DNA of 64,000 nucleotides from an uncultured Planctomycetales bacterium. Its GTDB lineage: Bacteria; Omnitrophota; Gorgyraeia; Zapsychrales; JAHFFX01. The translations under genes and the position numbers were made by a program. Shown in pieces: positions 1 to 64,000 of the stretch; position 1 is the first letter of the stretch, and the number at the start of each line of letters is the position of its first letter. The stretch is taken from NCBI GenBank assembly GCA_964612665.1, contig CAZTCI010000001.1, forward strand, positions 508,896 to 572,895, read 5' to 3'. The notes beneath the pieces are model-generated. The model ran no database searches and was not told the DNA's origin. It was given only the letters and a program-made list of their open reading frames with translations.

Positions 1-3000
1 ATGCAGCACACTTCCTAAACTGTAGTAATTGGGAAGCGGTCGCGTTAAAACAGCGGTCAAGAGACCTTCGACCCAGGCGAGGCGAATGTCGACGTGCTCT
101 GTTAAAGAAGTGATTTGATAACCAGGCTGGCTTTTAATAAATTCCCACTGCTGCTTGATTTGACGCACAAATGAAACGACGCGGTCAAACACCGACTTGA
201 TTTCGCCAGCTATATTGTCGTGCTGTCTTTTAATTGTTTCGTTGATCTCTTTAATTAAGTCCATTAGGTTTTCATAACTGAACTCTTCTTTAATGGCCAA
301 TGAACTTTCTCTTTGAGTGGCAGCATCAGTTATCTCATCCCAATAAGACTGCACAGTTTCAGTAATAAGCTCCAGGGCGTTTCTCACATCATGCAAGCTG
401 AATAGCATTACTGCTTCAGTTTCTTTACCTTCTTCTTTATTCTCCGACGGAGGGATCTCCTCTCCAAAAAGACCGGCCACCAAATTACAGAGTCTTTCTC
501 GTCCAGCGATCTTCGGAATACGGATGACCTTACCTTTATAATCTTGGTTAGGTTCAACTTCAGTCCAGTATAAAGAATCTGTAATACCATACCCTCTAAA
601 ATCATAAGCCAGGATATCGTCGTCTTCACCACTTCGAATGATCATGGGATTAGGGAATCCGATTCTTTTCATTTCCACAATCAATTCAATGCCCGCATTA
701 TTCTTTCCCATCTGATTATCCGTCAACAATAAGTCAACGAGTTTTCCTTCTGCCAAAAGCTGATGATACGTTGATAAAGCCTTTTCCTTGTTGGCAGCCG
801 TATATACTTGATAACCTCTTTGTATTAAATCATTGGATATTGTCTCAAGCACGTCTTCGTCGTCGTCAACCAGCAAAATTAAGCGTTTATACGCCTGAAC
901 ATTGGGAGTTAAAATGGATAAAAGAACAATCATCATTAACCAATCTAACGACACAAAAATGCCTAATGTGGCTCTGGACTCCACTCGCGTTGAATTCTCC
1001 AACCCATTGAACCACCGTTCGACAATTAGCTCGAAATTCCGCAGTTTCGGATCGAATTGCGCTCTCATTTGGATCAGAAGCGATTGGATTTCCTCAATAT
1101 CTCTGAGCGAATTCATTCTAAAATCGGCTTCAAGAATTTTTCGTAAGGAATCAATTAGATATTGTTTCCCATCGGGGATAAAGGCCTTAAGTAATTCTAC
1201 GATTCTGGTCCTCGAGAATCCTCTATTCATCAAGCGCAAAACATGTTGGTTATTTAAAAAGGCCACAATATTAATTGCCGCAAGAATGTCGACATCTTCT
1301 AGGAGGAAAAGCATTTCGTTTAGTGAAATAAATTGCCCGGCTATTCTTAAATGCCAACTGAAAGAAGTCTTAAATTCTTCTTTTCTCGGCAGGCGATCCG
1401 CTTTATTTACAATCCGCATAAAACGCGCCAGCGAATTGATGCCCATTAGATAACCATCAAACGGTCCTTGTTTTAAGAGTTGCATTGCGAATATATCAGT
1501 CAAAAACTGCGGCGTAAGATCCTTTGTGTCCGTCGTCGAATAAAGTGGAGAGCTACGATTGAAAAGCTCTCGAAGGAACTCATAATAGGACAACACATTT
1601 TTCTGAATGTCCTGATAATCAGAAACTCCCGCATCAACAGCCAGCGCCACGGCCTGGCCAAGCAAAGCCAAGTACTGCGGCTGGCTGATTCCGACGGGTT
1701 CAGTGAGTCTCCATAAATCAGAAATTAGCGTGTCGACACTTACTGGAATATTATCTACCCCAATTATGTGCTTGAATCGATTGAAGCTGGCAGCGACCAG
1801 ATTCTCATCGTTCCTAGATTTATCCAACCAAACTTTCTGCCACTTTTCAACCGATGAGAAGAATTCCACCTGAACAGCCGCAGGTTGTCCAATATCAGCA
1901 TCTAAATTCTCCTCGAGAATACGACCGTTGCTCAACACCAAATAATTAACAGGAAGCATTCGGATATAATCCAAATACATCAAACGATCCTCATCCCTAA
2001 AATCTTCAATCGCCGGTTCGATGAGAATGATTTGGATCGGTACTTTGAGACCAAACACCGCCTGCATGAGGGCAATAGCAAACTTCTTAAAAATGCAGTC
2101 AAATGCGGTACTGCCGATCAAAAAGACAGTCAATTTCTTGGAGTCTCGCTCTTGATTTTCAATTAAAGATTTCAAAAACTGGGCGGTTGAATGTCGCGAA
2201 TTGCTTGCGTGCCAGCGCTGAATTATGCGGTCAGGGCCGACGGGAGGATTCTCCGATTCGATGGCCGAGGAGAGAATTTTGCAAGGTTGCTGTGCCACTG
2301 AAAGTTCTTTCACGTCAACCGTTTTTTGATTCCACAAAATGGAACGTAAAAGATTGCCTGCTATTTTTGCGGCACTTCCTTTTGGCGAAGCCGAATAATC
2401 ATTAACAACATCGATTCCAATGCCCCGTACCGCCGCGATAGCTCCTACTGATACGAACAAGCCTGTCACAGCGCTTAAAACTGTCGGCAAAATCTGCGCC
2501 AGCATCCATAGGAAGAAGGTTAGAATATCACCGTGGGGTAAAACGATCATTTCATAACTTTCTTCATCCGACGACATAAATAGTTCTTGACCTTCCAACT
2601 CTTCTTCTAACGATGACAGCCCTTGAAACTCCTGCGTCAGATGTTCCCAGCTAAGTGGTATCTGTCTTTCTTGTGCCTGTATCATGACCAACTTTGCTTT
2701 TTCTTCATCCACACCTAATTGTTGAGCCAGGGCTTTGGGATTATTAATTAGCTCGTACCATTGTTTTTCTGTTACTTGTTTTTGCAAACGCCAGTAGCGA
2801 AGTAATTCTTGGGAGTGACCAAATTTCGCTTCCAATAAGCGTTTAACCACGTTTCTAAAAACAGCTATTACCATGTTATAAGTTAACGCGCCTAGGGCCA
2901 TGAGATAAAATGAGAAATGGAAAGAATAAACTGCTTTTGCTTTTGCTTTTGCTTTATCTTTATCCATCTTGAACTCTGCATCGGTAAATGCCAGCAAATC

Positions 3001-6000
3001 TGTGAATATAGAAATTCTGACTTGCCATTGACTGGAAAGTTTATTCCACGCTGTTGGCTTGCCATCAAATGTAATGATTGATGGCAATTCGTAAGATTGG
3101 CCCTGGACTTCTGAAATCCAATATTGTCGTATCCGGGATTTACCGAGAAATGTTTCGTCACTTCCAACAACAACGAGTTCTTCGATCAGTAATATTTCGA
3201 TAAAAACTCCCTTATCTTTCGCATAATCCATAATAATAGCGGCGGCATTCAAGAGACAATCGCCATATTTCCCGCCGAGCAGAACAACCTGAATACCGTT
3301 TTCTTGGAGAAGGAGATCTAAGAATTTATAAATACGCTGACGGTCTTCTTTAGAAGATTCATGAATTTTTTCGGGCTTGGGTTCTTCTAATTCTTGAACT
3401 ACGATCCCACGCTTTTTTAATAAAGTAACCAAAGATTTAAAAATCGGCTGCATCTCTCTTCCCAAATCACCAGAAACGCTACGATAATCCCTAACTTCGA
3501 AAATTCCAATTGTGAGAGACCTGATTCGATTTATAGCTACAAAAGATTCTTGAGATGATGTGTATTGATTTCGGCGTTTTTGTCGTTGAATAATAATAAA
3601 CTTGCCAAATTCAAAGATAACTATGCCCAAAATAATACTAACCATTCCCACAGTAAATCCCAACATCCCGGCCGTTTCTTTGGTGGCCTTTAAATAAATA
3701 ACATCCGCCGATAAATCTTTATGACCACCCACATTGATAATCATCTGCTGTTCATACGCTAAAGAAAGCGCGGCCGCTTCGTTGATTTCAAATCCGGCGG
3801 ATTTGACCTGAGCGATCAGTTGGTCTTTAAGTTCGCCGAGCGGACCAAAGGATTCTTCAATCATTTCACCATTGAAGGAGACGAGATGTTTAGTTGCCTT
3901 AATAATATGTATTTCACCTCCATGGGAAAGGACGTTATAAACCTCAGATAAAACTATGGACGGCCTCGTCGATTCAAGCACGAAACTAAGCAAGGCCACA
4001 TCAAACGTCTCTGGCGCAAACGACAAATGCTGGGCGTCTCCATTCACCCAGAGACCATCGCTTACTGTGTGTTGCACGATGCGTATCTTTGAGAAATTAT
4101 TATCTAATCCAACAACGACATTCCCCTGTCTTCTTAACTTACCGGCGATGCCGCCGGAACCAGTACCTACATCCAAAATACGATGACCGCTCCCAATTTC
4201 CTGCAGATACCAAAACGAGAGCATAAAAGAATTATTAATAGTGTGCCGCAACAAATCCTCCAACGTTATGATGATGGGCTTACGCACGGCGGCAACAGAG
4301 ATCATTACTACAAGCAGCATCCATTTTATTAATCCGACGAACCAGATCATCGAAATCAAAGAATAAATATCTACATACAGCGAATTATATTGGCCTTGTT
4401 TATAATGTTCATTCGCACGCCTGATCAATTCTTCATGGATCCGATCACCAATCGGAATCATCCCTCGCCGGTGATTATCGGCCAAATATCCGAGCGCCTC
4501 TGCCAATGTTTGCGCGGCGATGCCGAAAAATAGGCGGACATCATTTGTGCCCATTATGCGGGCCGCGGGATTGGGCGCTGGGGGTTTTTCACGCGCGATA
4601 AACTGGCGGATTTCTTCCAGGACATTGAAGACTTCGGTGAGTTGTTTGAGTGTCTTGACCGATAAATGCGGTTGCGGTTCAACAAAGACAATTGAGTTGA
4701 CCAAGGCCAGCAGATGGTTTTGAATTTGATATGCATAATTATCCAGGTCTTTTATATTGGTCTGCTCGGCAACATGCATTTCATAATCTAAATCTTGATT
4801 AGGAAGATCAAGGATTTTGATCGACAACAGCCCTTTGTGTTGCATCTGTTCCAAAGCCGTGTACAAGGCGGCCATTGATTCCATGAAACCTTCACCCGAC
4901 GGAATATAAGTTTGATTCTTTAATTTCGGACCTTCGCTTCTCTTATCTTTCTTGGGCACAGACTCTTTCTGCGTGTAAGGTAAGAAAACGGCGCCTAATT
5001 TTTGGTTGTCTTTCTTGCCATAAAGGAAAAATTCAATCGCCAGCTGCGGAAAGACCCGGACCGTTTTGGGCAAAGCATCAATAGAAAATCTTTGTATTGT
5101 GACGTCCGCTTTCTTAATCGAGACATACTTGGGGTCCTTAAAGAAAATGACCGCTTCTCCATAATCCGTTGAAATCAGGAACTCAACCTTTTCGCCGGCT
5201 GCAAGATTTTGCTCAACCGCTTTCAAATTGATCGTCAATTCAGACTGGGAATTCTGTTCAAGTACTTCTTGTTGGGAGATCGGCTGTCGTCGAGGATGAT
5301 AAGAAGCAACGTCGAATGAACTTCCTTCCAGCAGCATAAGGATAGTTACGACCAAATAGATATTTTTGAAAAGTTGGAATGAAGATTTAAAGCGCGACGC
5401 GAAAACAGCAATTAAAACTAACACCGCGATAATTACCCAAAACTCTTGTGAATGAATAAGGGAAAAATTACTTCCCTCATCAACAGCATTCAAATCTCCA
5501 TTCTTGGCTCGAACTTCCCAAGTTTTATCAGCTTGTTGGTAAGAATTCTTTTGAATCGCCTCTCTAACTCTTTGAGTCAAATCATTTTCGTCGATGCCGC
5601 CAACGTCGATCCAATTCACGAAGGCAGCAATAATATGCTCCTGAAATTCCTCCGAACTTGCCGACATCCTCACTCCGATTTCCATAAATTCTTTGGCCGC
5701 CCTTTTGAGTTCTTCAATGGCTTGACTGCGTAATGACAAATCCTCGATGCTTCTCGCCAGCGTCCATCTCAGCTGATTGTTTAAATACCGTATGAACGTC
5801 TTTAATTTCTCCATATCTCCCTCGAGTAACTTAATTTTCCATAATTGATTGGCCAGCCGGCTGATCGTTTCAAATGCCTTTTGCCAGGTCTTTTCCGACG
5901 ATGAAAGCGAAAGACGCTCTGCCATTAAAAGCAAAGTCTCATCCAAATATTTCAACTCATTCGATGGATAAAAAAATAAATAGCTATCGTAATCATCCAT

Positions 6001-9000
6001 GCGTCCCATTGCGTGGCTATGATAAAGATCTCGCTCGGGAACAAGGGCGATATTCAAAACATAATCTCTGAACGGTGCTTTTTCATAACTGCAATTTTTT
6101 TCGTATCTAAGCCAACCATCGAGATTTTCCATCGCCATTGAAAAAGATCCACGAAGTCCCGGGTTCGCCCTCCAAGCAACGATTTTCAGTAAGAGCTCTT
6201 TCAGTTTGTGATTTTCAAGTAACCGGCCCGTCGCTTGTCCTTGCCAGTTTAGTTCTTCCACATTAAACAACATCTGCGCCAAATATTGCGGAATCGAATT
6301 TAGTCGCCCTTCGGTCCCCCAAAGATCCAGGGCATTTGTTGACTGAGGATCGTTCGAGATCGCAGGATCAAATGTTTTGAAGTCCAGCGCCTCTTTGAGC
6401 ATCCATAACGTTAGATCCTCATAAGTAAAATCGGAAAATCCGCCATTACGCAAAGACAACGGCTGCTGTAATTGTTCACTCATAACAAAATAAAGTCCGA
6501 TCAATCGTCGGAGGCCTTGAATCAGCGGCGGGAAGTCAATCGGATAAGTTCTTTCTTTATCAAAGTGCATTCCAATTGTTCGCACATGCAACAAAAAGAA
6601 TATCGATGTCCAGGCGGTTAACCATTGTTCTTTCAGTTGTCCACCTGCCCAAAACCACATTCGTCGGGTTCCTATTTCAAATGGTTCGACATCCTCAAGC
6701 GAAGCCAAGCGCACAATATCCTGATTGGGATGACCATACTTTGATAACCAGCCTCTGGCTTTCCAATACCGACGCAGACAATCGCCGATCAATGAAAGCT
6801 CTTGCTCCGAAAGTGGGAGCAAATGACCATCTCCTGTCTCACTATCCATTCTTTCAGAAGTAGCATTCACAATTAGATAACCTAAGAGCTTTGTGAAACG
6901 TTGACTCTCGTGAGTGAGAGAATCAAAAATGGTTGAAGCATTAGCATTATGCAGGCTATACAAAACATATCTTCTCTGCTTTTCGTTATAATGTTCCGTA
7001 TTCAAATCTATCTTAGAATCTAACGTAAATTCCCACGCAGGTGGAAGTAACATGCCTTGCGAATTGATATACCCTAGTTGAACAAGATCATTAAATAACT
7101 GTGGCAAGTCTTTGTCAGGAACAATCCCCTTAAAACTTTTCAAGCTTACCGCATCATATTGATCGAGGAGGTTTGTCAGTGTTTCGATCCATTGCGCAAC
7201 GGGCCGCGATGTATTCTGAGCATTGGAATCAGTTAAAGTAACTTTCTGCTGTCTGACTGAGAGACGACGCCAGAAACTCTCTCCCCATGACAACTTCAGC
7301 ATCATCAAAATCCCGAAGACAATCAGCGCAAGCCATCCCCAACTTCCTTCCGCACCCGTCGTTGGCCAGAGAATCAGATGGCTGCTCAATTCATTTCCCG
7401 ACGCTGATTGAGCACTCAACATCACGATCCCCATCGCAGCGGCAATCATTCCGCCGCGCAGGCGTCCCCAAAATCCTCGTACTAAGCGAATTGCTAACGT
7501 AACAACGAGACCCGCAGTAATGACGGTCAATAATCGATTGAGAATAGATTGCAAAAGGTTTGAAAAAATAGGGTTGTGCTGCAGGAAGGAAAGAAGCGGA
7601 GTATCTTTTTTGCCGACGGGCGGGGCGTTGGGCTGCATCTTAGCATAGTGCCACACAATCAAAATACTAACGCCAATTAAAATCAATAGATATTGCACGA
7701 GTGAGTAGGTGTCCATGTTGAAAATGTTATTTGTTTTAGTCTCCCGATCAAAACCTCCATCCCGTTCGGCGAGCATCAGAAAAGCCGTCTCGGCGATGTG
7801 CATGTCGCTGATGCCGTGATGCAGATAGATTTTATGCACGCTGCGCGTCGAAAGACCGTTTCTGACGAGGCCCAGGTCCCAAACGCCCTGTCCTAACCGC
7901 AACCGATCACCGATTCCAGCGAGAAACTCCGGCGATGCATCCGCGACGGTAACAACCGGGGTGAACTTCCGTTCAGTCTTTGGAATTAATTTTTCTAATT
8001 GTTCGAATAGATTTTCTCTTCCTAACCGTCCAAGAAGAAGATTGGGGCTCGTCACCACAATCACATTGGCGTAAATGGGATAATTTTTATGAAGTTTCAA
8101 AAGCTCGTCGGACGCGGACAAGGCGGCCTGGACCATAGGACCGATGGCGACGATGTTAACCACATTGTCATCGGGATGGTAATCAGGAAGATGGCTGTAA
8201 TCGACGAGCCGGTAACCGCCTTTGAGAATTTCTGGGCCGAGACGCTTGATGGCGGCGGGTTCATTAAGGCCGGAATAAGTTTTCTGTTCCCGCAACCGCC
8301 GGAACAATCCGCTGCGTTCAACCAACAGGCTCGATGCGCGGATATACACGGCGTTACGCCCGTGGTCATGGCCGGTCAACATAAGTTCAAAGGTTTTTTT
8401 CAATATATAATCTAACTCGTCAAGAAAAGCCGGTTCCCACATAACCGTGTTGGGCATCGCCCGGCCGATGTCCGCCGAGACACTCGATTGATGTTGAGCA
8501 CCGTCGGTGGCCAGCGTTGGGCCGGACGGTGTTCCGACAGCAATAAATTGTGAACCCCAGTACTGGGCGTAAAAAAATTGATCCAGCGCCCGGCGGAATA
8601 AAAACATATCATAGATCGTAACAACCGGAATCAAACGCACGCCAAACAAATCATAAGCCTTGCCAAAAGCCGCCGCCAAGGTCACGGCGTTCATTTCTGT
8701 AATGCCAATGCGTAAATGATTTCCCGCAAATGAATCGGCGCTGACAACACCTTGAGTGGCGCCAGGAGCAATCATTCCCGTAGATGATCCAACATCCGGA
8801 GAAATCGTGACCAACCGCGGCGCTATTTTCTGCCAGAAGCGATCGTCTTCGGAAAGGTCCGCCGCCGCCGATTGACTGAGTAGACCTTTCACCCTATTAA
8901 TCGACATACCCAGATATGTCTGCGTTGGAATTCTCCCGCGGGCCGGTGAATAAAGTTTTTCCGGCCAGATTTGATTCTTTAATTCTGCTTCAAACGCCGC

Positions 9001-12000
9001 GCGGTTTGCATCGATCATTTGCTGCGCTTCGGCGGCTTCATGATCTAAACGTGAACGGACATTCTTAAGTGTCTTAAACTCGACGGAAGTTTCATTGAAA
9101 TTGGGGAATGGATTATCTTGCGGCATGCCTAATTCGTTACGGACCTGCGCCAATTCTTCGGGAGTCAATAACTGCGAATGGTTTCCTTCCTGACCAATCA
9201 TCGGTCTTAGACCCCAGCCTTTGATCGTATGCGCAATAATTACCGTCGGGCGATCGCTGGCGCGGGCTTCGCTCAAGGCTTTGATTAACTCAACCAAATC
9301 ATGGCCGCCCAAATCGGTAAAGAGCTCATAGATTTTTTCATCGCTGTATTTCTTCAAGAACCGCTTTATTGGCCTTTTCCTTTCCAAAGAGAGTTTCTTA
9401 TTCTTATCATCCAAGGGAAAAGGCCTAATATTGACTTTTGTTTCTTCCTTTGGATTCACAAAAGTCAATAAAGAAGAACGTTGTTCGATCATCCAAGCGC
9501 GGATTCCGGCGCCGTTTTGAGCGGAAAGATTTTGGTAAACTTTCTGGTCGATTGTTTCCATAACTTTCCTAAAGACACTTCCCCCTCGTCGGGCAAAAGC
9601 CGCTTGCAATTTTCGGCCCCAGCGCAGTTCAACGACTTGCCATCCAGCCGCCGCGTACATTCCGCGCAGTTGATCCAATTTCCAGTTTTCGGTATTTCCG
9701 TCGAGTGATTGGCGGTTGTAATCGACAATATGCGTCACGCGGTCCAAGTTAAATTCTTTCACTAACGTCAGAATCTCCCGCAGGTTTCCTTCTTCAGATT
9801 CAGCATCACCCAAGACCGCGAAGAAATGCGAATCAGAAACCGCATGGCCATGCGCCTTGAGCCATTTCCAAACAACGTTAAGTGCTAAGGCAACCGCCGG
9901 CCCTATGCCAACCGAGCCCGTCGGAATTTTGACGCCGTCCGGGTCCGCCATTCCCGGATACGCGTGCAGGCCTGGTTTGTCTAATTCATCCGTGTTGACT
10001 TCCGGATGCTTGGCGATGAAGGCGGCTTTTAATTCTTCAAGTTCTTTTAAGACTTCTGGCGCAAGACGGCCCCTGATATCTTCAGCCCTGAAATCAACCG
10101 GCAGCCGGACAGCGTTATCACGCAAACGATAAAGTGTATCGACGGGTAATCGACCTAAAAGATATTGAATGGCATGATACACCGGCGCGGCGTGCGGTTT
10201 GTGGGCGACAAAATCATGACCGCGCATGACAGCCAGCTCGAGGGCGATCATAATGTGCAATGCAGACGCGGATGCAGCCTGGTGCCCGCCGGTTTTAGGC
10301 AGTTCATATTTAATTTTATTGGCTTCATCAATTTCACCGATTGAAATCCCAAGCGCCCGACGGGCGATGCTTTCTAAAGCTTCGATGTCCTTCGGTGCAA
10401 ATCCTTCCGGAATTTTATCATTTCTATTTCGGGGAGGCCGGTGTCCGGATGAGCTCATTGCAACAATCATCATCGTGGACAAGAACAACGCAGCCACATG
10501 TCCACCTACGAAGTAGGACACAGCCAATAGTCCATCCAGTGCCAGCGCGATGAGGACAAGCGCAGTTGCAAATACGGTGGAGAGGTTTTGATCTGAGCAT
10601 TCTTTTATTCCATTTTTTGTTTTTTTGGTTTCCTGAGCTGAAAACTTTTTCCACCAGGCAAACGTTTCACTCAAACCCGTCCCAATATTCTTTTGTCGTC
10701 TCAACTTGTTGACAATCAAAATGATTAATGTTATGTTGGCGTCGAAAAGATCATTGATCAATAATTGCGTGGCCCTCTTTGAAAGATGGGAGAATCGTAA
10801 GTGAAGATCTGGGAATTTGAATGGGACAACTGGAATATTGAGCATATTGCTAAACATTCCGTAAAATCTCAAGAGGTAGAAGAAGCTTGTTATCGCCGCC
10901 ACGTCGCTAAGAAAACTAAAGATGACATTTATCTTGTCTATGGTCAAACGTATTCTGGCCGTTATCTTTTCATCGTTATTAAATATAAATCTAAAGGAAT
11001 TGTTTACCCTATAACCGCTCGAGACATGACTGATTCTGAGCAGAGATTCTTCCTTAAACGGAGGTAACATATGATTAAGAAGTCTTCTGTAATCCCAAAA
11101 TTTAAGAATGTCGCCGATGCGGCTGAATTCTTCGATCAACATGATACGACCCAGTTTCTCGACGAATTGCAACCAGCGCATCTTAAGTTCCCTAAGCCCA
11201 AGCATCTTTTGATCACCTTGAAACCTAAACAAATAACGAGGCTCAGACGCTTGGCCGACAAAATGGGTAAACCTTCCGATCAAATTGTTGAGCAATGGAT
11301 CACCCAAAAACTTGCCGAAGGGTAATGATCTGCCCAATGTGGCACGGCTCAATTTCTTTACAATCTCTTTAAAAACGCCTTTCGCTTTATCTGAGGATTT
11401 GGTTCGAATCGTCAGTATCAACAGCAACACATCAACGGCCAACACAAGGAACATCAAATGTAATCCCGGTCCCGGAACAAAATATCCTTTAAACACAACC
11501 ACCGGACGTTCCTCATCAGGCAGAAAACCTAATTCCTCGCGGATCTCCTCGGGAGATATTCTTAAAATATGTATGGGCTGAGGATGATCTTCAAAATATT
11601 TTAAGAACAGGCTTGTAATCGTTTGTCCGTTATCAGAAGCAATATGAAGACGGCCCAGAATAAAAAACGTGTCTTTAGCAGCTTTTCGGCCGCGCGATAA
11701 GATATTGATCATATTGGGGAACATGAATGGTTCCCTTAGGTCAATAGCGAATCTAAAGTTCTCCGAGACATTGATCCCTTTCAAAATTTCTTGAACAGCG
11801 GGCTCGGCCTGGCCGACGACATGATTTTCGCGTTTGGCTCTGGCCATGAGGGCTTTTATAAAAACAACAGTCAAATCACGCCAAGTTGTCAAGTCTTTAA
11901 GCATGTCCGCTGAGTTATCCGGGGGCAATGTTACGATCGCGGAAAAAACGAGACTGTTCCGGGTGTTGTAATAAAGAGAAATGCGTCTGTATAACGTTGT

Positions 12001-15000
12001 AACAGGGTGCATATAGCCGGGAGGTAACCATTGGGCCAAATCCTGCCACGTGGGAAGGATGAACAAATTCAACGCAGAATGAATAAATCCTCTTTTTAGC
12101 GATTGCAGTTTATCTAAAGAAACCTTCGAAGGGTCGGACAGCCATTGTTCATATTGCAGATAGTCATCTAATCGGGTGGCCAATTCATAACTCAAAATCT
12201 CCTCGACGCCAAACAAATGTCCTTTGGTACTACGGTTAAAATGGGTCGACACATACCACAGTTCGTCTTCTTTAAACCGGGCCACTCCTTCGACACCCGC
12301 AAAGATTTTCTTGCGTGCGGCCAGGAGATGGATCTCTTCTCTAAATAATTCATGCTCGGGATTGGTATGGTTTTCCCCGATTAAAAACAATCGCGGTGCG
12401 GATTCGGGTTTCAGGCGGACAGCGAGGAAAATTAATGTGCTCAATAAAAACGTCAGGTTTAAACTATTATCGAAACCATGGACGGCAATAAAGAAGCTCT
12501 TGAAATTTTCAGTCTTTTCCAATTTTCTTGACGACAATTCTTTATTGATCTTGTTGCGTTCTGATGACACATAGGCCAGGACAGCATCCAAAAATTTTCG
12601 ATGGATTGAATCTGTGGGTTTTACAATACGGCCATATTCCGCATATAACGATACAGCTTTATCAAAGGAAACTTCCCAACGGAAGCTGACAGTCTTTTGC
12701 CAAACAATGATTTGGCCCCGCCCGACAGATGACAAGAAGGCATTGGCTTTCTCGTCCGACGGGTTTTTCCGCGCCTGCAGCAAAACACACTCTCCATTAA
12801 ATGGAGGATAAAGAACCATCCGGTAAATAAAACCCAAATCACCCCCAAATTTTTGTTTCCTAAATAAATTTTCCAGTGCCTTGAAATGATGTTGTCGGTT
12901 GGAAATATCTCCCCCTCCTTTAGGAAGATATCCGGCAGCAGCATTAATCTTTGACCAAATTGCTTGAACGGCTTTTTGTTTGACATTAAATCTTTCCGCT
13001 ATCTGTTGATCACTTAGACCTTCAACGAAACCATATAAAATATTCAATTGTTTTTCCGTAAATACTGGTTTTGCCACATCGAATTTTGGAAACGGAGGCC
13101 TCCGGTCGACAAGTCCTAACTTTCTCGCTTTTTTGATAAGTTCCCTTCGCTCCGACGTCACAGCCAACACTTTATAAAGTCTCGAAATCTTTGAGCGTAT
13201 ATTGATTGCCGGTGAACTCAGCGCCTGGCCGATCTCAATCGTAGTATTTCCTTTATTAAGCAATCTTAAGATATGAAGTTCAAGCTCACTTAGGATGAAC
13301 GCATGTTTTTTTGCGAAAAGTTGTTTAGGTTTAACCAGCCGCTCAGACGATCCGAAAATCGCCACGCGGTATTCTTCATGCTGATTGAAAAATTTCCAAA
13401 GAAGATAAGGGTAATCATTATTAAAGTCGCGGGGTCCGCTTTTAATTTCCAGATTTAAAAGTTGATGAATTTGGCTCCTTGACTTGCGGATGGTTTCGGA
13501 CCCTGTCTCAAGCTGAGCGGCAATGTCCTTGTCATTTAATCCAGCATAAAGGCCTTTTAGAATGGCTATGTGTCGCGAAGAGAGTTCTTCGACGGACGCA
13601 CAAGATTGAACGCTGCGCGCTATGGCCGCGAGGACAGCGACAAAGATAAAACTGAAATTGGATAAATAATCCGATGGATTTGTAAGGATAAAAAAGTTAT
13701 GCTCTCGCTGCAACCCTGGCAAAAGACTTTGATTATCTCTTTTACGAAAGACTTCAAAGGGTTGAACAAACATAAACTGCGCGCCCGCTGTTCCCCTGCT
13801 AGTTTTAAAAACTTCACTTTGCCTAATCTGATTATTCAACGCATCGAGCGCTTCTTTAAGCGGTTGCGAGGTAATCAAATCTTTCCAGCCTCTTAAGAAG
13901 CCTATCTGTTCGAGCGCGCCAAAGATCCATGGTTCTTCATCAAACACAATAATGGTATCACTAGACCTTAAATCCCTTAATGTATTAAGCAGCCTAACCA
14001 CGACTGGTTGATCGATCCAAAAAGTTCCTTTTAGAATAACAGTCACACTTTCTTGTCCAGCTCGACGTAGAAATTCGACAATATCATCCAGCGCGTTGTC
14101 GATGTGTAACGTTTCCTTAGGGTAAATTCTATTTAGCAAAATTTTTTCTGGCTCCATAAACTGATTCACGAATGATTGCAGCTCCTTATAAGCTCTTTGC
14201 CGGTCTTCATGGTCATAGAGCCGGTCAATTCCGAGGACCAATTGGGCCGGCAGCTCCGCCACAAAAATGTCAACGCCTATTGCGGGATAAATCCGATACG
14301 GTTTTAAGAGACCAACCGCCGCTAAGACTTCTAACTCTCGCCGCCAGGCCTCGGCCAATGGCCCATAATCAACGCTTCCCCGCGATGCCAACCGTCTGCC
14401 TTGTTCTTCAACTATCATGGAAATCGCTTGAATCTGCTGGAGAATTTCTTCTTCGGAAATTATTTTGCCTCCGGTCCGTCTTGTGCTCTTTCGTAACGCT
14501 CGAACCAAAAATATAACCAGCGCGCTAATTGAAATTAGAGCAGCTGCGGCATAAATAAAACCAGTATCAACTAACATCGACGATGATTCTGGATATTTCG
14601 CGTCATAAGTTTTCGCTAATTGATACAACGTCCGCTCTACACGGTCTTTAAGACGGAGGAATTGCCTTTCTGATAGGGTCAATGTCACCATTATCTCTGG
14701 CCAGGAGCATGTCAGAATATGATTATTATTGTTTTTCTCAGCGAAATCACTTTGGCTTGTATCACTGACCGCATCCATAAGGACTTCCAGTTCTAATAGC
14801 GCTTTGACAATTATCTGACTTGTTTCTTCACCTCGACGATAAACATCGGTCATATCTTGTTTGGTTGGCTCCAACCTTTCATCCGTTGAAGGTTCCGGAA
14901 CATTTTCAAGTTCCGTCTCAAAATCAAAAACTTGCTGCTCCAGTTCTCTTCCCTTCTTAACAGCCCAATCCAAGACCGACGCTTTATAAAACAAAAGTAC

Positions 15001-18000
15001 AAATTTCGGCCCGCGCAAATTATGCTTTAAAATATTTAAAATCCTTTCGGCTTCTTCTTGCATCTGGACATAAGAAATCTGGTCTTCATAAATCTGACCC
15101 ATGAGTATCTCAATCAGCTTTCGTTGATCTACATTTATTCTTTCCTCTCTCCAAATTCTCTCGAGGATTGAAGATGTTCCCGACAACTGGACAACCGGCA
15201 TCAGAGTCTCATAAAATTGAAACACCCTCTTTATCATTTCTGATATTTTTTCTGTTCTTTGTCCTTCATGCTGAGGCTTGAACCAAATATCGACTTCCGA
15301 CGTCACAATAAAATTCTTCATCTCTTCGTAATTGGTATTGATCTTTTCTCGAAAACTCTCAATCTTTTCTAATATAACGTTAAAGACTTTGTCCCACCCG
15401 ATTTCAGCTTCGGTTTTGTTTTCATCGGCCGATTTTGTGTCTCCCTCTCGATCCCCTGCTATGCCTTCCGAATGATTTTCAGTGACGATTACCACTATCA
15501 CTGCTCCCACCCACAACATAAAAGAAATGACCGAGAGATCTAAGAAGGAATGCTCATTGTTCCGGTTTCTGTTTCTGAAATTTCTCCTCCGGCCTGATGA
15601 ATTAAATCTTTCTGTCAACCGCCGTAGATCCTCTAAGTTTGCACTCATGCTCAAACCGTAGTCATTAAAAATATCTCTCAGCGTTTCGGTGACTTTGGAA
15701 ATTCCAGAAAAATCGACCTCTTGGCTCAATGAAAGCATTTCCAAGTTATATTGCCGCAGCCAGCCCTGAAATTCCGCGGGGGTGATTCCACGGGATTCCA
15801 AAGCCTCCCAAAGCCGGAGTAATACAATTCCCATTTCTTCGATTGTTTCCGATTGCTGCCGTTCTATTAAATATTCTCCGCTTGTCGCGGGTTCTGGCAA
15901 TCTTGCCGGTTTTTTTCTTGTTTTTTCCGGCCGGGGAATTCTATGGCGAGGAAAGGCATTGTAAACAGCGCGCTGTATATTTACGAGTTCAGTCACTCCG
16001 CTGCTGATGGCATTTTCAGCCGCATGCAATGCCTTTGTGAATTTACTCCGGCTGGAATTGAAAGACTCGAGGAGCCATGGAATAACTTGTTGGTTCAAAA
16101 TTTCTTCACCACGGCGTCTGGCTTCTTCGCTTAAATTAACCTGATGGGATAAAGAAATTCTCTTATTCATCCAGCGGTCTGCGACGACTAATCCTAAGAA
16201 TTTATATTCAGGATACTCATAAAGATAAACACTGTAACGCGGCTCGTCTTCATTCAATTCGACTAACCGGTATGACCTGCCTTCGCCCCGAAAATCTTCA
16301 TAAATTCCTTCACCCAAATCTCTCAAAGAAAACCAGACAAACTCTCCATCTCTAATCTTGAAGATATCCTCCAGCCATCTTCTTTCTTTTGTTATCTGAA
16401 CGAAATACTTTCCGGCCTGCAATTCTTTGGGGGTGGAATTTTGGGGATTAGGTTTCCGGCGTGTGACTAATGTAAACCACAGCCATTCACTCTGATCGCC
16501 GCGTGCCGTAACGATTTTGGCTTTCAGGGAAACATAACCTCGAGTTCCCCATGAATACCAAAGATCAGCGAATCCGCCTAAATACGCGTCTCCGACGTAA
16601 ATTTTATCTAAACGGTAAAGACCTGTAGATACTCTTGGGTCAACAGCTTCAATCCCTTGGCCTTTCTTAATAATCATGTCGAAACCCTTGCGGTGAAAAT
16701 CAGCGATGTCTTTTCTCACATGACTACTCCGCGCTTTAAGCAGCTTTTGTTGCTTTCCTTGAATGCCCCAATAGTGAAGAATCGGGGAACGTTGTAATTT
16801 TCCGCCGATATTTTCTTCAAACCATACCGCAACATACTCGGAATAAACTGAAGACCAGCGCAGCCCTAAGTTTCCATAACGCTTTCGGACTGTAAACGTC
16901 GAATATCTTTTTCCAAAGAGCGGAATCTTTCCGTCGGCGGTAGTTTTAACATTCTCAATCTTAAGCAATTCATATCCTTGGGCAGACCATCGCTGCGCCA
17001 GTTCAAGACTAATGACACTGTATTGGCCCAAATTTTTTTCACGTTGTCCTTCGCGTTTCGATCCTTTAACGACCAGAATTAAACGCTGTTGACGATCGAC
17101 CTCATGCAGCACCATTTCCTGCTTCACTCTTCTCCATAATTTTGTCCACAACCGTATCCAATCTCGACGGCGCGGATAAATCCGTCCAATTTCAATATCA
17201 TTAATAACTCTGGCACTAATGTCTGCCAAAAGGCCGGCGTCTTTTTGGGACATTCCTAATGACTCCCGCACGGCTTTTAATCTCTTCCCTGGTTCTTGAT
17301 AGAAGTGATCCAACAATATCTTCCAGTCTCGCACCCCCCATCTTACCCGTGCCCCTTTTTCTAATCCCTTAATTTTGAAAGGAGTGGTATTGGATAAGTC
17401 AGCGATTTTTTGCGGCGAGAGTTCTAATATATTCCTGAATAACTTTAACTCTCGTCGGGCTTCTTCATACATTGTATTCAACAATAATGCCAAATCATCG
17501 GCTTTCCATCTGGCATTCTTTGACTTTAAATCATTAATTCTATTTCTACTGATATGCGCAAGAGCCGCGAGTTCTTCTGGCGACATTCGCAAAGCTTCCC
17601 GCAATATCTTTAATTGCCGACCGGCCTCTTTATGCAGTTTATTCAATATAATATTCCAACGGTCAACACTCTCCCTAACATGACCATTCTCTAAAGCACT
17701 AATGCGTCTGGCCCTAACCTTGCTCAAAGCACCAACATCTTTTGCCGTCATTCTCAAAGACTTTCTTAATACCTTTAATTGCCGATGGGCCTCTTCATGC
17801 AGGTCCTCGAAGTTCCATAATTCCGATCGGGACATGTTGAGTAATTCTCTGGATCTCTCTAACAGTTCAATCGATTTTTTATCATCTTGCCCCTGTCTTT
17901 GGGAAGAAGCCGCCATGCCAAGAATCACTAAGGATAAAACGGAGTATACCATCCATAAATTGCTTATAATTTGAACAACCGTTAAGATAATAATCGTCGT

Positions 18001-48000: not shown

Positions 48001-51000
48001 TAATTGATCGAACAGCGGCGCCGAAATCTTCGCCGGGACTTGGGTACGTTTGGCGGTATTTATAATCAACACAATAATGACAACCGCCAGCGCCAACATG
48101 GTAACAGCAAGAAATTTCTTATTTGTTGATTCAGGATTGCTTTTTTGGACCGATGGTAAGGATGTCCACGGCATTAAGACTCCATCGACTGAGAATCGCG
48201 CTGCCAAGGCTTCCGGCGACACGACGTAATTTTGCGGGAGAAATATATCCGCCAGAAAGTTCGGGTCTTTTTGACTTCGACCTTCTGCAGTTTCTACTCT
48301 GATCAGTAAAGAAAAGACATAAACCTGAAGAGGTATGACATTTATATCTGTCTTTGCGTCTTTCAAGACGGCTCCGATATGATGGAAACTAACAATCTTA
48401 TAAATTGTTTCATCATCAGAAAAAGCAGCCGTATCGTGGAGAACACCCGCCAACCATTCTCCATAACCGATACGCTTTTGAAGGTCCATGAGATGCTCGG
48501 ACCGGATGCCTCCAGCTTTCTCATATTTAATATCTTTGATATACCCTGCCCCTTCCATTCGCATAATTATAGCGGCCATCACTTTAATAAAGTCGCCAAA
48601 TAAAGTATGCGCCAAATCCTCCGACGGAATATCAGATACATTTCGAACACCTTTCTGAGCGTAATGTTCCAGTATGCTAAAAAAGGCCTTACGACCTTCT
48701 CTCAATGAGCGACCGAGATAAGGAAATTGAGTTAAATAATCGGCACCCGCCAGTTCCTTGACCAACATGCCAAGAAGAATCGTCTTTAAAATCTTGCTTT
48801 CTTCGCTCGAATCCTTTGTATAACGAATTAAAACAGGAATAATCCTCGGATTAATTAGAAAATCAAATTCAAGATATCCTTCACTGTTGATTGCGAATCC
48901 TTGATCTGTCATCTGGGGAACAATCGCGATGGGTGATTTGGAATCTCTGGGAAGAAAATCAAACTTACCGGTCATTCGCTTTAGGATTTCAGCCCAGCGC
49001 CGTTCGCGCTCATCGGAAGAATGAGCCCATTGAGCGGCTGTTGTCTGGAAAAATTGTCTAATAACCCGTTTAATTTCTTCGGGAGAATCAGGTAAAGATT
49101 CCTTTTCCTTGCGGGAAACAGCAGGAACGGAATTCGATGGTGCGGCAAATATGAGCGTTGATGTAAAGAGGAAATGAACGGCCGTCAGAAGAATCAAGAT
49201 CTTCTTAGAAATCGGCGGCGGTGAATTCTTCTGACGTTCAAAATAGCGTCGAAACTCGCTTAGACTCATCAATCCGCCGGCGAATCTTCTCCCAATAAAT
49301 ATAAGCATTACAACAACCACGCCCAGAATCGCATACCCATCTACACCCCGGAGGTGTAGATGGGTAACAGGATTTTTCTCTGACTCAAAATCACTTTCAG
49401 CAAAAGCACCTTCCAAAAGTGCGCCGACACGTTTCAGCCAAACATCAAAGTCAATCGCTTCATGCTGTGCCAACCACATAATGGCCTGCTCGAGCACTTT
49501 CACATGCCGAGGAAGTGCTTTTTGTTTCCAGGCCGGTAACGCGTTATAGGCCATGACATCCACTTGGACGCGGGCCGTTGTCCAATTTTCCTGTATGAGC
49601 AATGCGCGTACACTGCGCAAGACGTCTGCGCAATTTTCTATACCAATCGCATCAGTGAGAAATATGTCGATGTGCGTTGCATTCTCTTCTTGGGCTTCTA
49701 CCTTGGCCCATACATGAACAGCCGAAAGGTCGCGGTATTCAGCGACGACGGAATTCACCAGATCAATCAACGCGCTGCGGTCGTCGCGGTGCATGGTCAA
49801 TGCAATGTCCTGATTTTCCAAAACATCTTTGAGATGAAGCAGGAAGCTTACAACTTTATACGTGCCGGCCTGCGCAGCGAGTTCGATGCCTCTGGAGACA
49901 ATTTCCATGCGGACAACTGGATTGCGAAATTCAACAGCTGTCAGACCTAAAAGATCGTTGAGCGCAACAACGCTCGGTGATCTGTGAATCTCGTCGGATA
50001 ATTGATTCATAACAGTCAAGACACGATCCATTTCTTCTGTTTGAGCTTCGATAGCCGCTGACAAACCGTTAAGTATGTATAAAATCCAACGGAATTCTGG
50101 ATTATATTGCTTAGTCATCGCTGATACTATTGCCTTCGCCTGTCGAAGCGGCGCTCGAGCCAGATCTATTTGATCATTTGAATAGTGACTCCAGGCCAAG
50201 TACACGTAAGCAGCCACTTTTTGCGGTTCTAAAATATTTAATGATGTGATCGACGTCCAGCGTCTCACAGCTTCATCATATTCTTTTTGTTCAAAACTAA
50301 TTCTAGCCTGAGCGATTGCGGTCAAAGACAACACGCGGCCCTTTATGCCCAAATCGGAATACTGCTGGCTCCATGCTTTCAGAAGCCTGATTCTCTCGAC
50401 GGCAGATTCGAATTTCTGTTCCGTAATATCTATGATGATTCTGTAATAATTGGCCAGAATGTCCAACTCGATATAGCTAAAGTGGGGATGAAACTTCTGG
50501 GTCAGCATTGGCTGATAATGTGTCACATACCGATTGTTGATAGCGAGCGCCTGCACAAACGCTTGATTAGCTTCTACATAATGTTGCTGATCAAAATGAA
50601 TCATGCCTTTAAACAACGTAAACCATGCTTGTTCCAAGGAATCATCAGGGAATTTTTTGATCGCTTGATCGGCGGCCTGCAAAGCGGCTTCAAATTCTTC
50701 AAAAAGGGCCAAATGTAAGACCTTTCCAGTCAACTGCACAGACATGTCATCATCTTTTTCTGTCCTTTGTACCAAAACGCTCTGTTCCTGACGTGACAAC
50801 CATATCTCGACGGCATTTTGCACTTTCGCGACATCCAGGTTTTTCACTCTCGTCGCTTTCGAAAGAACAGCGCGTACCGTCGCTTCGTTTTGAATGCCAG
50901 CGACCAATGTTCTTAACTCCTGATCACTCGGCTGACCGCTTGGCAGATTCGGCAAAACATTCCGCAAGGCTCGACGCAGAGACGCATAATCTGTTTTGGG

Positions 51001-57000: not shown

Positions 57001-60000
57001 GAGAATGGATTTCAAACTCTCTAATACATGTTCGGTCTGCGTCAAAACGTCCGATTCCTCGGCTTCAAGCTTATCGGCCTCAGCCATTAATTCTTCAACC
57101 TTATAGGCTGGAGCCCTATGCGTTTTTAAAGCTGCCTCCATGTGAACCATTCTCGTCCTGGCCGCATCAATGAGTGCGATGGCTCGTTTTTCTGAAACCT
57201 CTTGCATGTATTGGGTCAATGTCTTCCCGAGTGCGTCCTGATCACTGGCTAATGTTTGTAATTCATTCCGTCCTTCCTCGGAAATCTTGGATTGATGAAC
57301 GGTGATGGCACTGATCGTCAGCGCTGCTTTACTCACATCATCCGTCATCGTCTTAAGCCTCTGATAAAGATCATTAAACTCCGTCAACAAGACGCCCATA
57401 TTATCATCACTGACGATTAGTGTCTTCTTTAGATAAGTGGCTACGGATGCATTGATCTCTAAAGACACAACGTTGCGCATCTGCGTCAATCGATCCTTCG
57501 TTTTTTCCATTAAATCTTCGAGCGTAATAAATCGATGACCAGCTTCAAAAGAGTCCTGAAGCAAGATCATTTGCGTCTCTTGCGTTCCTTGATAGACATT
57601 GCGGGTCTCCTCAATCAGCGTCTCAATGGATTGAGGATCTTGCTGCAGAATTTGGGCCGCTCTTCTTATTTCCGCCACGGCCAGCGTCCAGAGATCCTCG
57701 TCGGCCTGATCCATCAAACGTTGCGCCCAAGCGATAAATTCAAATTCCATCAACTCTTGATTCCAAGACGAACTCAATTCGTGAATCAATTTAATCGTTT
57801 CAAATTCGGGAGACTCTTTTAAATAATCTCGTCGAACCATTCTTAAAATACGTGCCTCGATGACATCGAATTCATCCCAATTAGAAATTTGTCGATCAAT
57901 GAGGAACTCGGCGACCTCATCCAGCGTTTTGAGTTTTACGATCGCCGTCAACAATTCTCGCTCTTGTTTCGATTCTGTCTTCTCTTCTTGTTGCAAGTTT
58001 TCGTTCGATTCTCCGTTTGCACGGAAAAGTTCGTTATGCTTTGCAGATCCTTCTTCGATCGATTCGTTAATGGCATTCGCCAATACTCGTCGGGTGTTTG
58101 GATCAAAAGCCACATTGTCCGGGAGATCTCTGCGCATGCTAAAGTAAACAAATAATATTTCGCGCCGTTCTCCTTCCCGCCAGCTATATCTGAAAAAGAT
58201 TCGATATGGTTTCCAATGAAGTTCTTGTAAGTTCAAGTAATTAATTCCAAATCCCATAATCACCTTGCCCAACGCCTTCCCATGCTCAATTTGCGATGCC
58301 GACGTCATCCATCGATCGATCTCATCCAGTAAACGCTTCTTTTCTTTCTCGTTGAGTTCGGATATGTTTTCATAAAATTCTTCCGAGGCCCTAGCTCGTA
58401 AACGTTTCAATGATGTGCTGCCATTGGCATAAATTGCTGTGCCGACAATAATGCCAAGGATAAACATCCATGAAAACGACGTGTCGATCATAATCCCCAC
58501 CACCGCTCCGATGAGAATCATGCGGAAGAGGTGATCCGCCGTGAGATGGTAGAGATGACGAAGGACGTAGGCGGAGACGCCGATAAAGAGGATGCTAATG
58601 AGCAACACTGGCGAGATCGCTTTGAGATTATGATGTTTCGACGGGTTTAACTCACCAGCCTTCTCATCCAAATGCTGAGTGATGTCTTCAACGGGAATGG
58701 CAAGACCATAATAACGTATAATTTCTGATAAATTGACAAAAGTGGTTTGGGCTTCATCCCATTGTTTCAGAGTTTGAATCTGTGATACCTGTTGCGCCAG
58801 TTGATGAATCTCTTCGACCATAACATCATGCAGCGCGTCTTTCCGAATGGCTTGACGGCGAGATTCAATCTCGTCGATCATCTCTTGGAAGGTCTGACGA
58901 TAAGCATCCAGAGCTTCCTTTGTCGATTGATATTGATCATCCAGCAAGGATTGCTGTTTTTGTAAACGCGACTGCAACAATCGTACGCGCTCAAGGGGAT
59001 CTTGAGGATGACGTCGCTTCGCCTTCGCTTTGGATATCGTTTTCCGCCCATGAGGATATCCTACAAATTTTTGATCACGAATCACGCGCCGGACGGCTTT
59101 CCCCTGCGTTTCTCCTCGCTGATTCTTTCCGGTGATGAACTGAATCGCACTTCGCCTTTTATTCCAGATGTTATCCGAACTGATTTCAACCGGCAAACTG
59201 ACTCTGATGGCACTGTTGGGCCAGATGCCTTCGGAGGTATCAATTCCAAAAGACAGCCGGATGATTTCAGCGGCCGCCGAATCTTTCCCTTGCAACTCCG
59301 CATATCTTAAACGCATCGCCTCAGCCTCGGGAGTATCGATCTCACCGCGGAAAACCTTTCTCAATTCCAAATCTCGCGCATTCAACACGACCGCTTTTTG
59401 CTTAATCGCCAGAACCTCCTTTTTCCTGGCCTCAGGCAGAAGCAAGATGGTTGACAACGGAACATTGAAAGCTGCGGCAAATTGAGGCAACGCACTGATC
59501 GAAAGCGTGCCGTCTCTCATTTGCTTCTGAAGATTTTGATAAAACATCCCGATCCGCTTGGCAAAATCTTCTTCGGTTAAATCGCGTTCCAGGCGAAGGA
59601 CCAGAAGATTGGCGAAGATTAAGCGTACAAATTCTTTTCCATCCGTCGGGCCGATGAACGGATACTCGGCTTCGTCTAAATTATCCAAAAAGAAAAGCAA
59701 TGGATTTCGCTGCAAGATATTCGCTATCTGGACAATTTTCGCCACCTGCGTGAATTGCAAATTATTTTCAATCCGGCGAATAGAATTCCCCGACATTCCC
59801 AGTTTTGTCGCGAGCCCTTGACGGGCTAAATCTGATGACGATGCTTCACGATATTTTTCAACCTGAGCGCCCACCCATTGACCATAGCGTTCAATTTCTT
59901 CCAATTTCTCGGGAGTGAAAATACTCGTCCTCGACTTCCTATCCACTCTGGCCATCCCGGCGAGGAACATCAGGTTAAGACCAAGGGCGGTGAGGGATAG

Positions 60001-64000: not shown

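Follow-up and report, generated by a model that had tools for sequence, protein, structure and literature searches.

A giant open reading frame fills the window

We analyzed a 64,000-nucleotide stretch of contig CAZTCI010000001.1 (hereafter the window). It is filled on its minus strand by part of one giant open reading frame (ORF), whose product combines regulatory and metabolic modules with many transmembrane (TM) helices, and two toxin-antitoxin (TA) operons are nested antisense within that frame. The minus-strand frame at offset 1 has no stop in 21,333 codons, while each of the other five frames has between 849 and 1344. The whole window is a slice of a single gene that is open at both window ends, and the gene is longer than 64 kb. 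Amino acid (aa) positions given below are those of this frame.

1..64000, minus strand: internal slice of one giant ORF of 21,333 codons (stop-free frame and positive codon-usage log-odds)

Codon-usage log-odds, trained on the giant frame itself, average 0.262 (SD 0.08 per 80 codons) and are positive along the full frame, with two sharp exceptions that correspond to the nested cassettes. The third-lowest score in the frame (-0.034) lies at 51043–51390 (aa 4204–4319), and no convincing gene is found there in any alternative frame. Scans of the window for tRNAs and Rfam families found none. A self-comparison with BLAST returns only 12 internal similarity pairs, and one 42-nt tandem repeat (21 nt x2) is present; with internal similarities so few, the product is not a repeat protein. 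GC content at third codon positions (GC3), taken per 150 codons over the whole window, ranges from 0.27 to 0.67 with an SD of 0.059, against the approximately 0.041 expected. This overdispersion suggests a compositional mosaic, although not one that tracks the named modules, as no consistent difference in GC3 separates these from the remainder.

Several other accounts of the frame were considered and set aside. An assembly artefact, or several genes instead of one, is ruled out by the stop-free frame together with the chance of about 1e-4 that it would stay open across the TA cassettes, a figure obtained with the TA protein sequences held fixed. Internal translation starts ahead of TM clusters were also rejected, with neither Met codons nor Shine-Dalgarno-like sequence enriched there. 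Two long antisense stretches, 20191–21165 (325 codons) and 50990–51484 (165 codons), look like noncoding translations and not like genes. The other alternative-frame ORFs of at least 72 aa have no family matches, except for a generic coiled-coil match for 23206–23457 on the plus strand. The latter is an 84-codon open antisense stretch with a heptad-like coiled coil, and it overlaps the only tandem repeat; because the giant-frame codon score is normal there, the stretch probably just mirrors a coiled-coil-coding region.

Recognizable modules are of cytoplasmic type

With the frame divided into 24 overlapping tiles of 1000 aa, Pfam and NCBIfam searches identify modules that together cover 14% of the residues. 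Along the protein, these are as follows.

59443..59886, minus strand: two Xre-type helix-turn-helix (HTH) units between two TM pairs (aa 1372–1519; HTH_3 28 bits, HTH_26 weak)
50131..50610, minus strand: marginal TPR-like repeats (aa 4464–4623; TPR_2 26.3 bits against a cut-off of 27, TPR_16 weak)
44041..45549, minus strand: internal duplication with Xre/MqsA-like HTH (aa 6151–6347 and 6484–6681; self-BLAST, HTH_3 32 bits each, TIGR03830)
42157..43713, minus strand: SecA-like DEAD motor with nucleotide-binding domains NBD1 and NBD2 (aa 6763–7281; PF07517 25.7 bits, PF21090, TIGR00963 44 bits)
39247..39819, minus strand: histidine-kinase dimerization and histidine phosphotransfer (DHp) and catalytic ATPase (CA) domains (aa 8061–8251; HATPase_c 80 bits at aa 8144–8251)
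31948..32154, minus strand: sigma-70 region 4 HTH (aa 10616–10684; PF08281, Sigma70_r4_2, 32.5 bits at aa 10631–10671)
25729..29154, minus strand: further HTH units at aa 11616–11749, 12582–12663, and 12732–12757 (HTH_3; weak IS21/Cbp1-type HTH)
23989..24099, minus strand: NERD or PD-(D/E)xK-like motif (aa 13301–13337; PF08378, E 7.9e-4, sub-threshold)
20302..20490, minus strand: FAD/NAD(P) Rossmann motif (aa 14504–14566; DAO 38 bits, NAD_binding_8 36 bits; LkcE in PDB)
17086..17802, minus strand: four tandem Xre-type HTH units (aa 15400–15638; HTH_31 64 bits, HTH_3 49 bits; iteration of hidden Markov models (HMMs) built in the window)
12895..13629, minus strand: two LuxR/GerE HTH units (aa 16791–16862 and 16962–17035; PF00196 54 bits, two stretches; in-window HMM)
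7780..10302, minus strand: AceE-type (homodimeric) E1 dependent on thiamine pyrophosphate (TPP) (aa 17900–18740; Transketolase_N 84 bits, Transket_pyr 40, PDH_E1_M 33)
3880..4200, minus strand: class I methyltransferase dependent on S-adenosylmethionine (SAM) (aa 19934–20040; Methyltransf_11 53 bits, DVGTGSG motif)
577..885, minus strand: response-regulator receiver (aa 21039–21141; PF00072 39.2 bits at aa 21041–21141)

The SecA-like motor matches PF07517 (SecA_DEAD) above its cut-off, as well as P-loop_SecA and the SecA chains in PDB (E 9e-8), and its SAGKT, LDEAD, and GGRGVN motifs are intact. The matches end near SecA residue 540, with no match to the scaffold, the wing (SecA_SW), or the C-terminal linker in this module. 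Just upstream of the motor lie the two duplicated 198-aa copies, which are 76% identical and point to a recent duplication of this HTH-bearing region. In the kinase, the PhoR and AtoS models span both DHp and CA, and the N, G1, F, and G2 boxes are intact. The receiver begins 9 aa past a TM helix and has its acidic residues (DDD and LLLTD), while the E1 module scores best against homodimeric AceE (TIGR00759, 158 bits) and retains the TPP motif GDAE-x26-NRQSLDG. The sigma-70 region 4 unit ends 16 aa ahead of a strong single TM, and the HTH units at aa 11616–11749, 12582–12663, and 12732–12757 each lie near a TM helix.

These results bear on a first-pass annotation of the window, which had been made from the letters and translations. 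Its SecA-type ATPase, kinase ATPase, receiver, sigma-70-like unit, TPP-dependent E1, and SAM methyltransferase are all recovered with profile matches and motifs (profile only for the sigma-70 unit). What it had called an FAD oxidoreductase does start as an FAD/NAD Rossmann fold, with GGGIFG followed by an acidic residue, but the match is confined to the N-terminal ~65 residues. The TPR assignment is marginal, and that of PD-(D/E)xK comes down to the sub-threshold NERD match on FEIDAVLIDSNHRLVFVEVK (20.4 bits against a cut-off of 22.1). The figure of at least 20 HTH units is not confirmed: using iterated HMMs built from the window, with a reversed-sequence control, we find 14 solid units (11 Xre-type and 3 LuxR/sigma-4-type) and 2–3 weak ones.

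Every recognizable module is of a type dependent on ATP, SAM, TPP, FAD/NAD, DNA, or partners in phosphotransfer, and the motifs for binding have been preserved. The nameable modules are of cytoplasmic type and probably functional. The expectation that adhesin and glycan-degrading content would be lacking also holds for this window, where no adhesin, Ig, lectin, dockerin, beta-helix, or CAZyme family reaches E<=0.01 and where Pfam returns no tandem Ig, cadherin, TSP3, dockerin, or lectin repeats; the point is not new.

This content bears on one rival explanation, proposed for giant proteins of Omnitrophota—i.e. that most of the chain, enzymes included, is exported and acts on the envelopes of prey or hosts, with the SecA-like motor driving its own export. 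The idea has published precedents, as TMHMM-based localization by West-Roberts et al. (2023; 10.1101/2023.11.21.568195) put most domains of such proteins outside, and Nielsen and Lui (2026; 10.64898/2026.06.07.730766) read giants that combine a signal peptide with TM helices as outward-facing. The first of these studies, however, itself calls such localizations unreliable. Some weights of our own free topology optimum (see below) likewise place the methyltransferase, receiver, and GerE units outside. Yet the chain carries modules that depend on ATP, SAM, TPP, or FAD, as well as HTH units, with motifs that are intact, and from established biochemistry we know of no extracellular role or cofactor supply for cofactor-dependent and DNA-binding modules of this kind. 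Internal repeats are few, and the tile scans contain no adhesin, lectin, glycoside hydrolase, or lyase matches. As such, we regard a surface effector as very unlikely.

Tight hairpins and isolated membrane helices

Helices were located with a 19-residue window and the biological hydrophobicity values of Hessa 2005, used as an approximate scale. Hydrophobic 19-mers number 24, 46, 66, and 81 at dG <= 0, 1.5, 3, and 4.5, respectively, compared with 1.6, 4.6, 11.8, and 23.4 in shuffles, which corresponds to roughly 55–65 real membrane helices, or about one per 350 residues. Of the 52 clusters that they form, 32 consist of one helix, 13 of two, 5 of three, and 2 of four. Both very tight pairs and widely isolated helices are found, for example the following.

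36475..36600, minus strand: hairpin FLDGVFRF-TM-THQH-LVG-TM (aa 9134–9175; TM scan and motif search)
10456..10575, minus strand: tight TM hairpin with a 2-aa turn and K/R on both flanks (aa 17809–17848; TM scan)
14503..15537, minus strand: two strong isolated TMs (aa 16155–16173 and 16481–16499) around a 307-aa acidic unannotated segment (TM scan)

Eight hairpins are tight (loop <=8 aa, with turns of 1–8 residues); besides the one at aa 17809, they lie at aa 1302, 3462, 5671, 9134, 10443, 12958, and 15328. A further ~16 adjacent pairs are wider. The turns of the eight tight hairpins hold only 2 K+R in 29 residues, while their outer flanks hold 22 and 17 against 14.7 expected per side (39 in total against 29). 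By the positive-inside rule, a tether whose two ends both lie in the cytoplasm should show just this pattern, which supports this part of the first-pass inference. The first-pass annotation had proposed that many junctions are hairpins, and its example, FRF-TM1-HLVG-TM2, is indeed present at aa 9128–9175 (FRF-TM-HQHLVG-TM). Many hairpins do exist, but they are not the general rule, because 17–23 strong helices stand isolated.

Specifically, 23 helices are isolated at dG <= 2.5, and 17 of these lack a candidate partner within 80 aa even when a 13-residue window is used. They bracket segments of 170–700 aa. One such segment, aa 16174–16480, follows a first TM preceded by Arg/Asn-rich sequence, is itself acidic, and ends at a second TM that is followed by six K/R; from this charge pattern, it is predicted to lie on the outer side. 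The methyltransferase is also bracketed by two isolated TMs (aa 19882–19900 and 20111–20129). Among isolated helices in general (e.g. those at aa 4313, 13700, 14878, 16481, 17513, and 20111), K+R residues sit mainly on the C-terminal flank.

Placement of the modules relative to the membrane

Taken with about even confidence, our preferred reading is that the window encodes an internal part of a giant polytopic inner-membrane protein, whose named modules are cytoplasmic and whose chain weaves through the membrane. With a TM helix approximately every 350 residues, one chain would thereby join a divergent SecA-like motor to a mosaic of otherwise unrelated modules: kinase and receiver, some 15 HTH units, an AceE-type E1, a flavin/NAD Rossmann motif, a SAM-dependent methyltransferase, a nuclease motif resembling NERD, and the SecA-like ATPase itself. 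These modules most likely sit on the cytoplasmic face, where in places they would be tethered by tight helix-turn-helix membrane hairpins. Elsewhere, single helices would carry the intervening, unannotated, and apparently helical segments to the outer face, so that the chain would weave through the membrane instead of hanging wholly inside.

The sidedness of the modules is inferred from cofactor logic and charge bias, and local helix counts agree with it in places. For example, the sigma-4 unit is separated by 4 helices from the HTH at aa 11616, and this in turn by 2 helices from the HTH at aa 12582; the E1, methyltransferase, and receiver also fit (6 and 4 helices), although only if all hydrophobic segments are counted. 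In its arrangement, the sigma-4/HTH stretch resembles one-component regulators strung together, each tethered to the membrane and with loops on the outer side. In terms of topology score, placing all 15 anchors inside gives 146.5, against 151.9 for the free optimum and 122.1 with all of them outside.

Several results weigh against this placement or weaken the means of judging it. First, a TOPPRED-like dynamic programme with positive-inside scoring leaves only 6–11 of 16 cytoplasm-type anchors inside, depending on the weights, and 9 of 60 sets of random pseudo-anchors reach the advantage observed for the all-inside solution. Counting helices from one anchor to the next gives an even number in 2–8 of 11 intervals, depending on the threshold, which is no more than chance would give. 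Second, K+R residues around the isolated helices number 65 on the C-terminal flank and 35 on the N-terminal flank (binomial P = 0.0035; sign test on net charge, 15:3), a one-sided bias that alternating single spans of an unbroken chain should not produce. It may stem from cryptic partner helices, from cutting of the chain into units with the N-terminus out and the C-terminus in, or from a limit of the rule itself for proteins of this sort. Third, the TM scale and the positive-inside scoring are crude stand-ins for DeepTMHMM, 86% of the residues have no annotation or homologue, and AlphaFold2 models from single sequences (pLDDT 45 for aa 16174–16480 and 36 for aa 1859–2948) are too poor to use. 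Lastly, at least 17 helices are strong and single, so that the chain has to cross over and leave some long unannotated stretches on the opposite side of the membrane, contrary to a model with everything inside. Even the solution in which all anchors are forced inside leaves ~6,900 aa, in ~20 unannotated segments, outside.

Overall, parity, positive-inside optimization, and anchor tests do not separate the all-inside model from chance, and none of the topology tests refutes a cytoplasmic placement of the named modules; topology derived from sequence cannot settle sidedness. The earlier proposal of a membrane-tethered chain of cytoplasmic modules is consequently only partly upheld. It agrees with the intact cofactor motifs and the K/R-flanked hairpins, but not with the isolated helices or with topology tests that remain at chance level, and as a description it holds at best for the nameable 14%. 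Similarly, the return of the chain to the same side agrees with the charge pattern of the eight tight hairpins, while the single helices force alternation.

The unannotated sequence and its distant relatives

Searches for relatives of the remaining sequence were almost entirely negative. A 4,222-aa concatenate of unannotated segments matched nothing among 5.8 billion proteins, and PDB sequence searches over aa 1–16800 matched only SecA and the Rossmann motif. An exhaustive HMMER search with aa 6101–7300 against 1.84 billion representatives gave a best E of 5e-12, and the only informative relatives are SecA-like regions (24% identity) in two proteins that fill short contigs (P0009 and P0042), one of 1932 aa on a 5.9-kb contig and the other of 6657 aa on a 20.9-kb contig. 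The larger of the two is also packed with TM pairs. A scan of GTDB genomes with the alignment returned ordinary SecA genes only. In the protein, GTDB, and metagenome collections searched, the giant ORF has no close relatives, only these remote SecA-like fragments.

Both of the low-confidence AlphaFold2 models are almost wholly helical. This hints, and no more than hints, that beta-rich material of the adhesin kind is not what the unannotated sequence consists of, and a composition in which 45% of residues are L, E, A, R, K, Q, or M agrees with that hint.

Recurrent junction motifs and the question of processing

Four motif families recur directly before TM helices: SSPTxGVGKVEKLSA (five copies), YFLxxHGFDD (three), FLDGIFRF (three), and GWExLGxGW (two). 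The regions that contain junction motifs are aa 9954–11608, 13690–14089, 17170–17196, 8296–9175, and 12085–12564, and the largest family is located as follows.

29176..34140, minus strand: five SSPTxGVGKVEKLSA copies, each directly before a TM (aa 9954–11608; motif search)

From their sequences, the motifs appear to show duplication of junctions together with their helices. They may be candidate sites of recognition or cleavage, or else remnants of unit duplication.

The former possibility is central to a second rival, in which the product is a polyprotein cut near the junctions into units, each anchored by an N-terminal, N-out/C-in helix or by a hairpin and mostly cytoplasmic. Such processing would account easily for the K/R-after-helix signature that the isolated helices share, which suits separate units and is awkward for a continuous chain. 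Furthermore, were the chain left uncut, two single helices that are paralogues of each other (aa 12099 and 12546) would have to point in opposite directions, and the presence of four recurrent motif families immediately ahead of TM helices is in line with cutting at junctions. Cleavage by N-terminal C39 or S8 peptidase domains has been proposed for giant proteins of this type (West-Roberts et al. 2023). However, the Pfam and NCBIfam tile scan detects no protease families in the window, and the motifs reflect region-specific paralogy and not one common site. Separate initiation of the units also lacks support, given that Met and Shine-Dalgarno signals are not enriched before TM clusters. On balance, we consider a processed polyprotein unlikely.

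Two toxin-antitoxin operons are nested antisense to the giant frame

The most surprising feature of the window is the presence of two intact type II TA operons on the plus strand, inside the giant ORF.

10801..11325, plus strand: brnT-brnA operon (brnT 10801–11067, brnA 11071–11325; giant aa ~17560–17733)
38143–38842, plus strand: PIN (VapC-like) cassette (toxin ORF 38375–38842; giant aa ~8387–8609)

The product of brnT matches PF04365 over the full-length profile (E 9e-7) and, by tblastn, shows 37–43% identity, across >90% of its length, to plasmid-borne proteins annotated as BrnT toxins. The brnA gene starts 3 nt after brnT and matches PF12441 above the cut-off (37 bits). In the second cassette, the toxin ORF matches PF01850 (36.4 bits, E 9.5e-9), has the four acidic residues, and is 31–35% identical to annotated VapC genes. 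An upstream ORF of 71 aa overlaps its start and is a candidate antitoxin (the cassette ORFs begin at 38176), although this putative VapB partner has no family match in the profile search. Promoter-like, sigma-70-like sites precede both operons, at 10709–10737 for brnTA (10/12, with TG) and at 38147–38175 for the PIN cassette (11/12).

Coding signals change sharply over both cassettes. The global minima of the giant-frame codon score lie here (-0.016 and -0.036), as do the global maxima of the plus-strand frames; GC drops to 0.405, and the giant-frame translation resembles antisense filler. The giant frame nonetheless crosses both cassettes without a stop. With the TA proteins fixed and codons redrawn from local usage, the chance works out at 0.17 x 0.038 x 0.032 x 0.53, or ~1e-4, and generic antisense stop densities give a value that is lower still.

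Direct repeats at 37800–37908 and 39006–39114 (giant aa 8698–8764 and 8296–8362) bracket the PIN cassette. The repeated unit is a TM junction that belongs to the giant gene itself, with 80% identity across 109 nt and 78% across 67 aa, and the spacing of 1206 nt equals 402 codons, in frame. Recombination between them would excise the cassette without disturbing the frame.

Read most simply, these findings would reflect insertion of mobile cassettes into the gene and survival of only those states that preserve the frame, which implies strong selection for an unbroken ORF together with tolerance of junk linkers. It is possible, and we offer this tentatively, that the giant ORF tolerates and may even grow by in-frame capture of mobile cassettes, part of its "dark" sequence being antisense read-through. 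If so, nested addiction modules could protect a very long gene from deletion, and antisense transcription could influence its expression. More generally, these operons bear on how giant genes evolve and stay intact.

A third rival takes this further, with the ORF growing by accretion of foreign DNA in frame and tolerating whatever leaves the frame open, many modules being gene remnants and much of the unannotated sequence filler instead of components of a single integrated machine. The two intact antisense TA operons, read through at codon minima far from the mean of 0.262, are what such growth would leave, as is a PIN cassette lying between in-frame direct repeats. Several HTH units also score best against antitoxin families (MqsA, HipB-partner, and PezA), a search of 5.8 billion proteins returned no homologue of the unannotated segments, and GC3 is overdispersed. 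Conversely, the enzyme modules have kept their cofactor and catalytic motifs although their overall similarity is very low, suggesting that function has been under selection, the giant-frame coding signal is normal outside the cassettes, and the named modules are not compositionally distinct. We therefore judge this accretion account improbable.

Comparison with known systems

Judged by architecture and the literature, and not by phylogeny, the window would fit among the giant genes of the Omnitrophota type. It has the features of such TM-rich giants, namely a single ORF of at least 21,333 codons, many TM helices, and a SecA DEAD motor without scaffold or wing. In Omnitrophota, West-Roberts et al. 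(2023) described ORFs that reach 85,804 aa and encode many TM helices along with a divergent SecA DEAD lacking scaffold and wing, among which HATPase_c, methyltransferase, and TPR domains are frequent; the authors also suggested proteolytic processing. Archaeovorin-type proteins from that study and the 39,678-aa protein of V. archaeovorus likewise have ORFs of tens of kb, many TMs, a divergent SecA_DEAD, HATPase_c, SAM methyltransferase, and TPR, and sequence that is mostly unannotated and poorly conserved. By contrast, the HEAT, GT5/GT1, GH, and NUDIX domains of Archaeovorin, and its peptidase domains, are not found at E<=0.01 in this slice of 21 thousand aa (kAA), while the HTH, sigma-4, and LuxR units and the AceE-type E1 found here are not mentioned in the main text of that study.

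The catalogue of 916 long proteins compiled by Nielsen and Lui (2026) includes class 1 "multi-enzyme" giants and a TM-only topology class, in which a 122-kAA protein has approximately one helix per 370 residues. It places PF08241 and PF02518 in a signal-transduction module (Module 1) and PF00072 in a sugar-metabolism module (Module 2), and it raises an "inner-membrane-anchored cytoplasmic-domain" hypothesis. All three families co-occur in our window, at a similar TM density, and those giants too are unique in sequence. The idea of cytoplasmic modules in giant proteins was thus largely anticipated by these two preprints. The HTH-rich content, the distinction between hairpins and single helices, and the junction motifs, however, appear not to be discussed in either. 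Hairpin tethers, HTH content, junction motifs, and nested antisense genes are all absent from the discussion of Nielsen and Lui (2026), and neither preprint mentions nested or antisense genes.

Both TA cassettes otherwise look like their known counterparts. As in known BrnTA operons, full-length BrnT and BrnA/CopG matches occur toxin-first, with a 3-nt gap and a promoter-like site; as in VapBC operons, a PIN domain with four acidic residues is accompanied by a small overlapping upstream ORF and a promoter-like site, even though the putative VapB matches no family. They differ from type II TA operons elsewhere in lying antisense inside another ORF that is kept stop-free.

The motor shares the NBD1 and NBD2 motifs of canonical SecA but matches none of its scaffold, wing, or C-terminal linker, and compared with adhesin-type giants, which are rich in repeats and beta structure, the window has no such repeats and its low-confidence models are all-helical. 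In membrane-integrated viral polyproteins (e.g. those of Flaviviridae), the chain weaves through the membrane via internal signal and stop-transfer helices, while the enzymes remain cytoplasmic. By analogy only, the giant chain would resemble these in its weaving, but it is cellular, 10–50 times longer, and only putatively processed, with neither a protease module nor defined cleavage sites found in this window.

Among bacterial giant proteins, this slice provides a well-documented case in which all recognizable content is regulatory or metabolic and dependent on cytoplasmic cofactors. As such, it supports the already published alternative of inner-membrane-anchored cytoplasmic enzymes, and the contrast between tight hairpins and isolated helices with one-sided charge is a concrete, testable handle.

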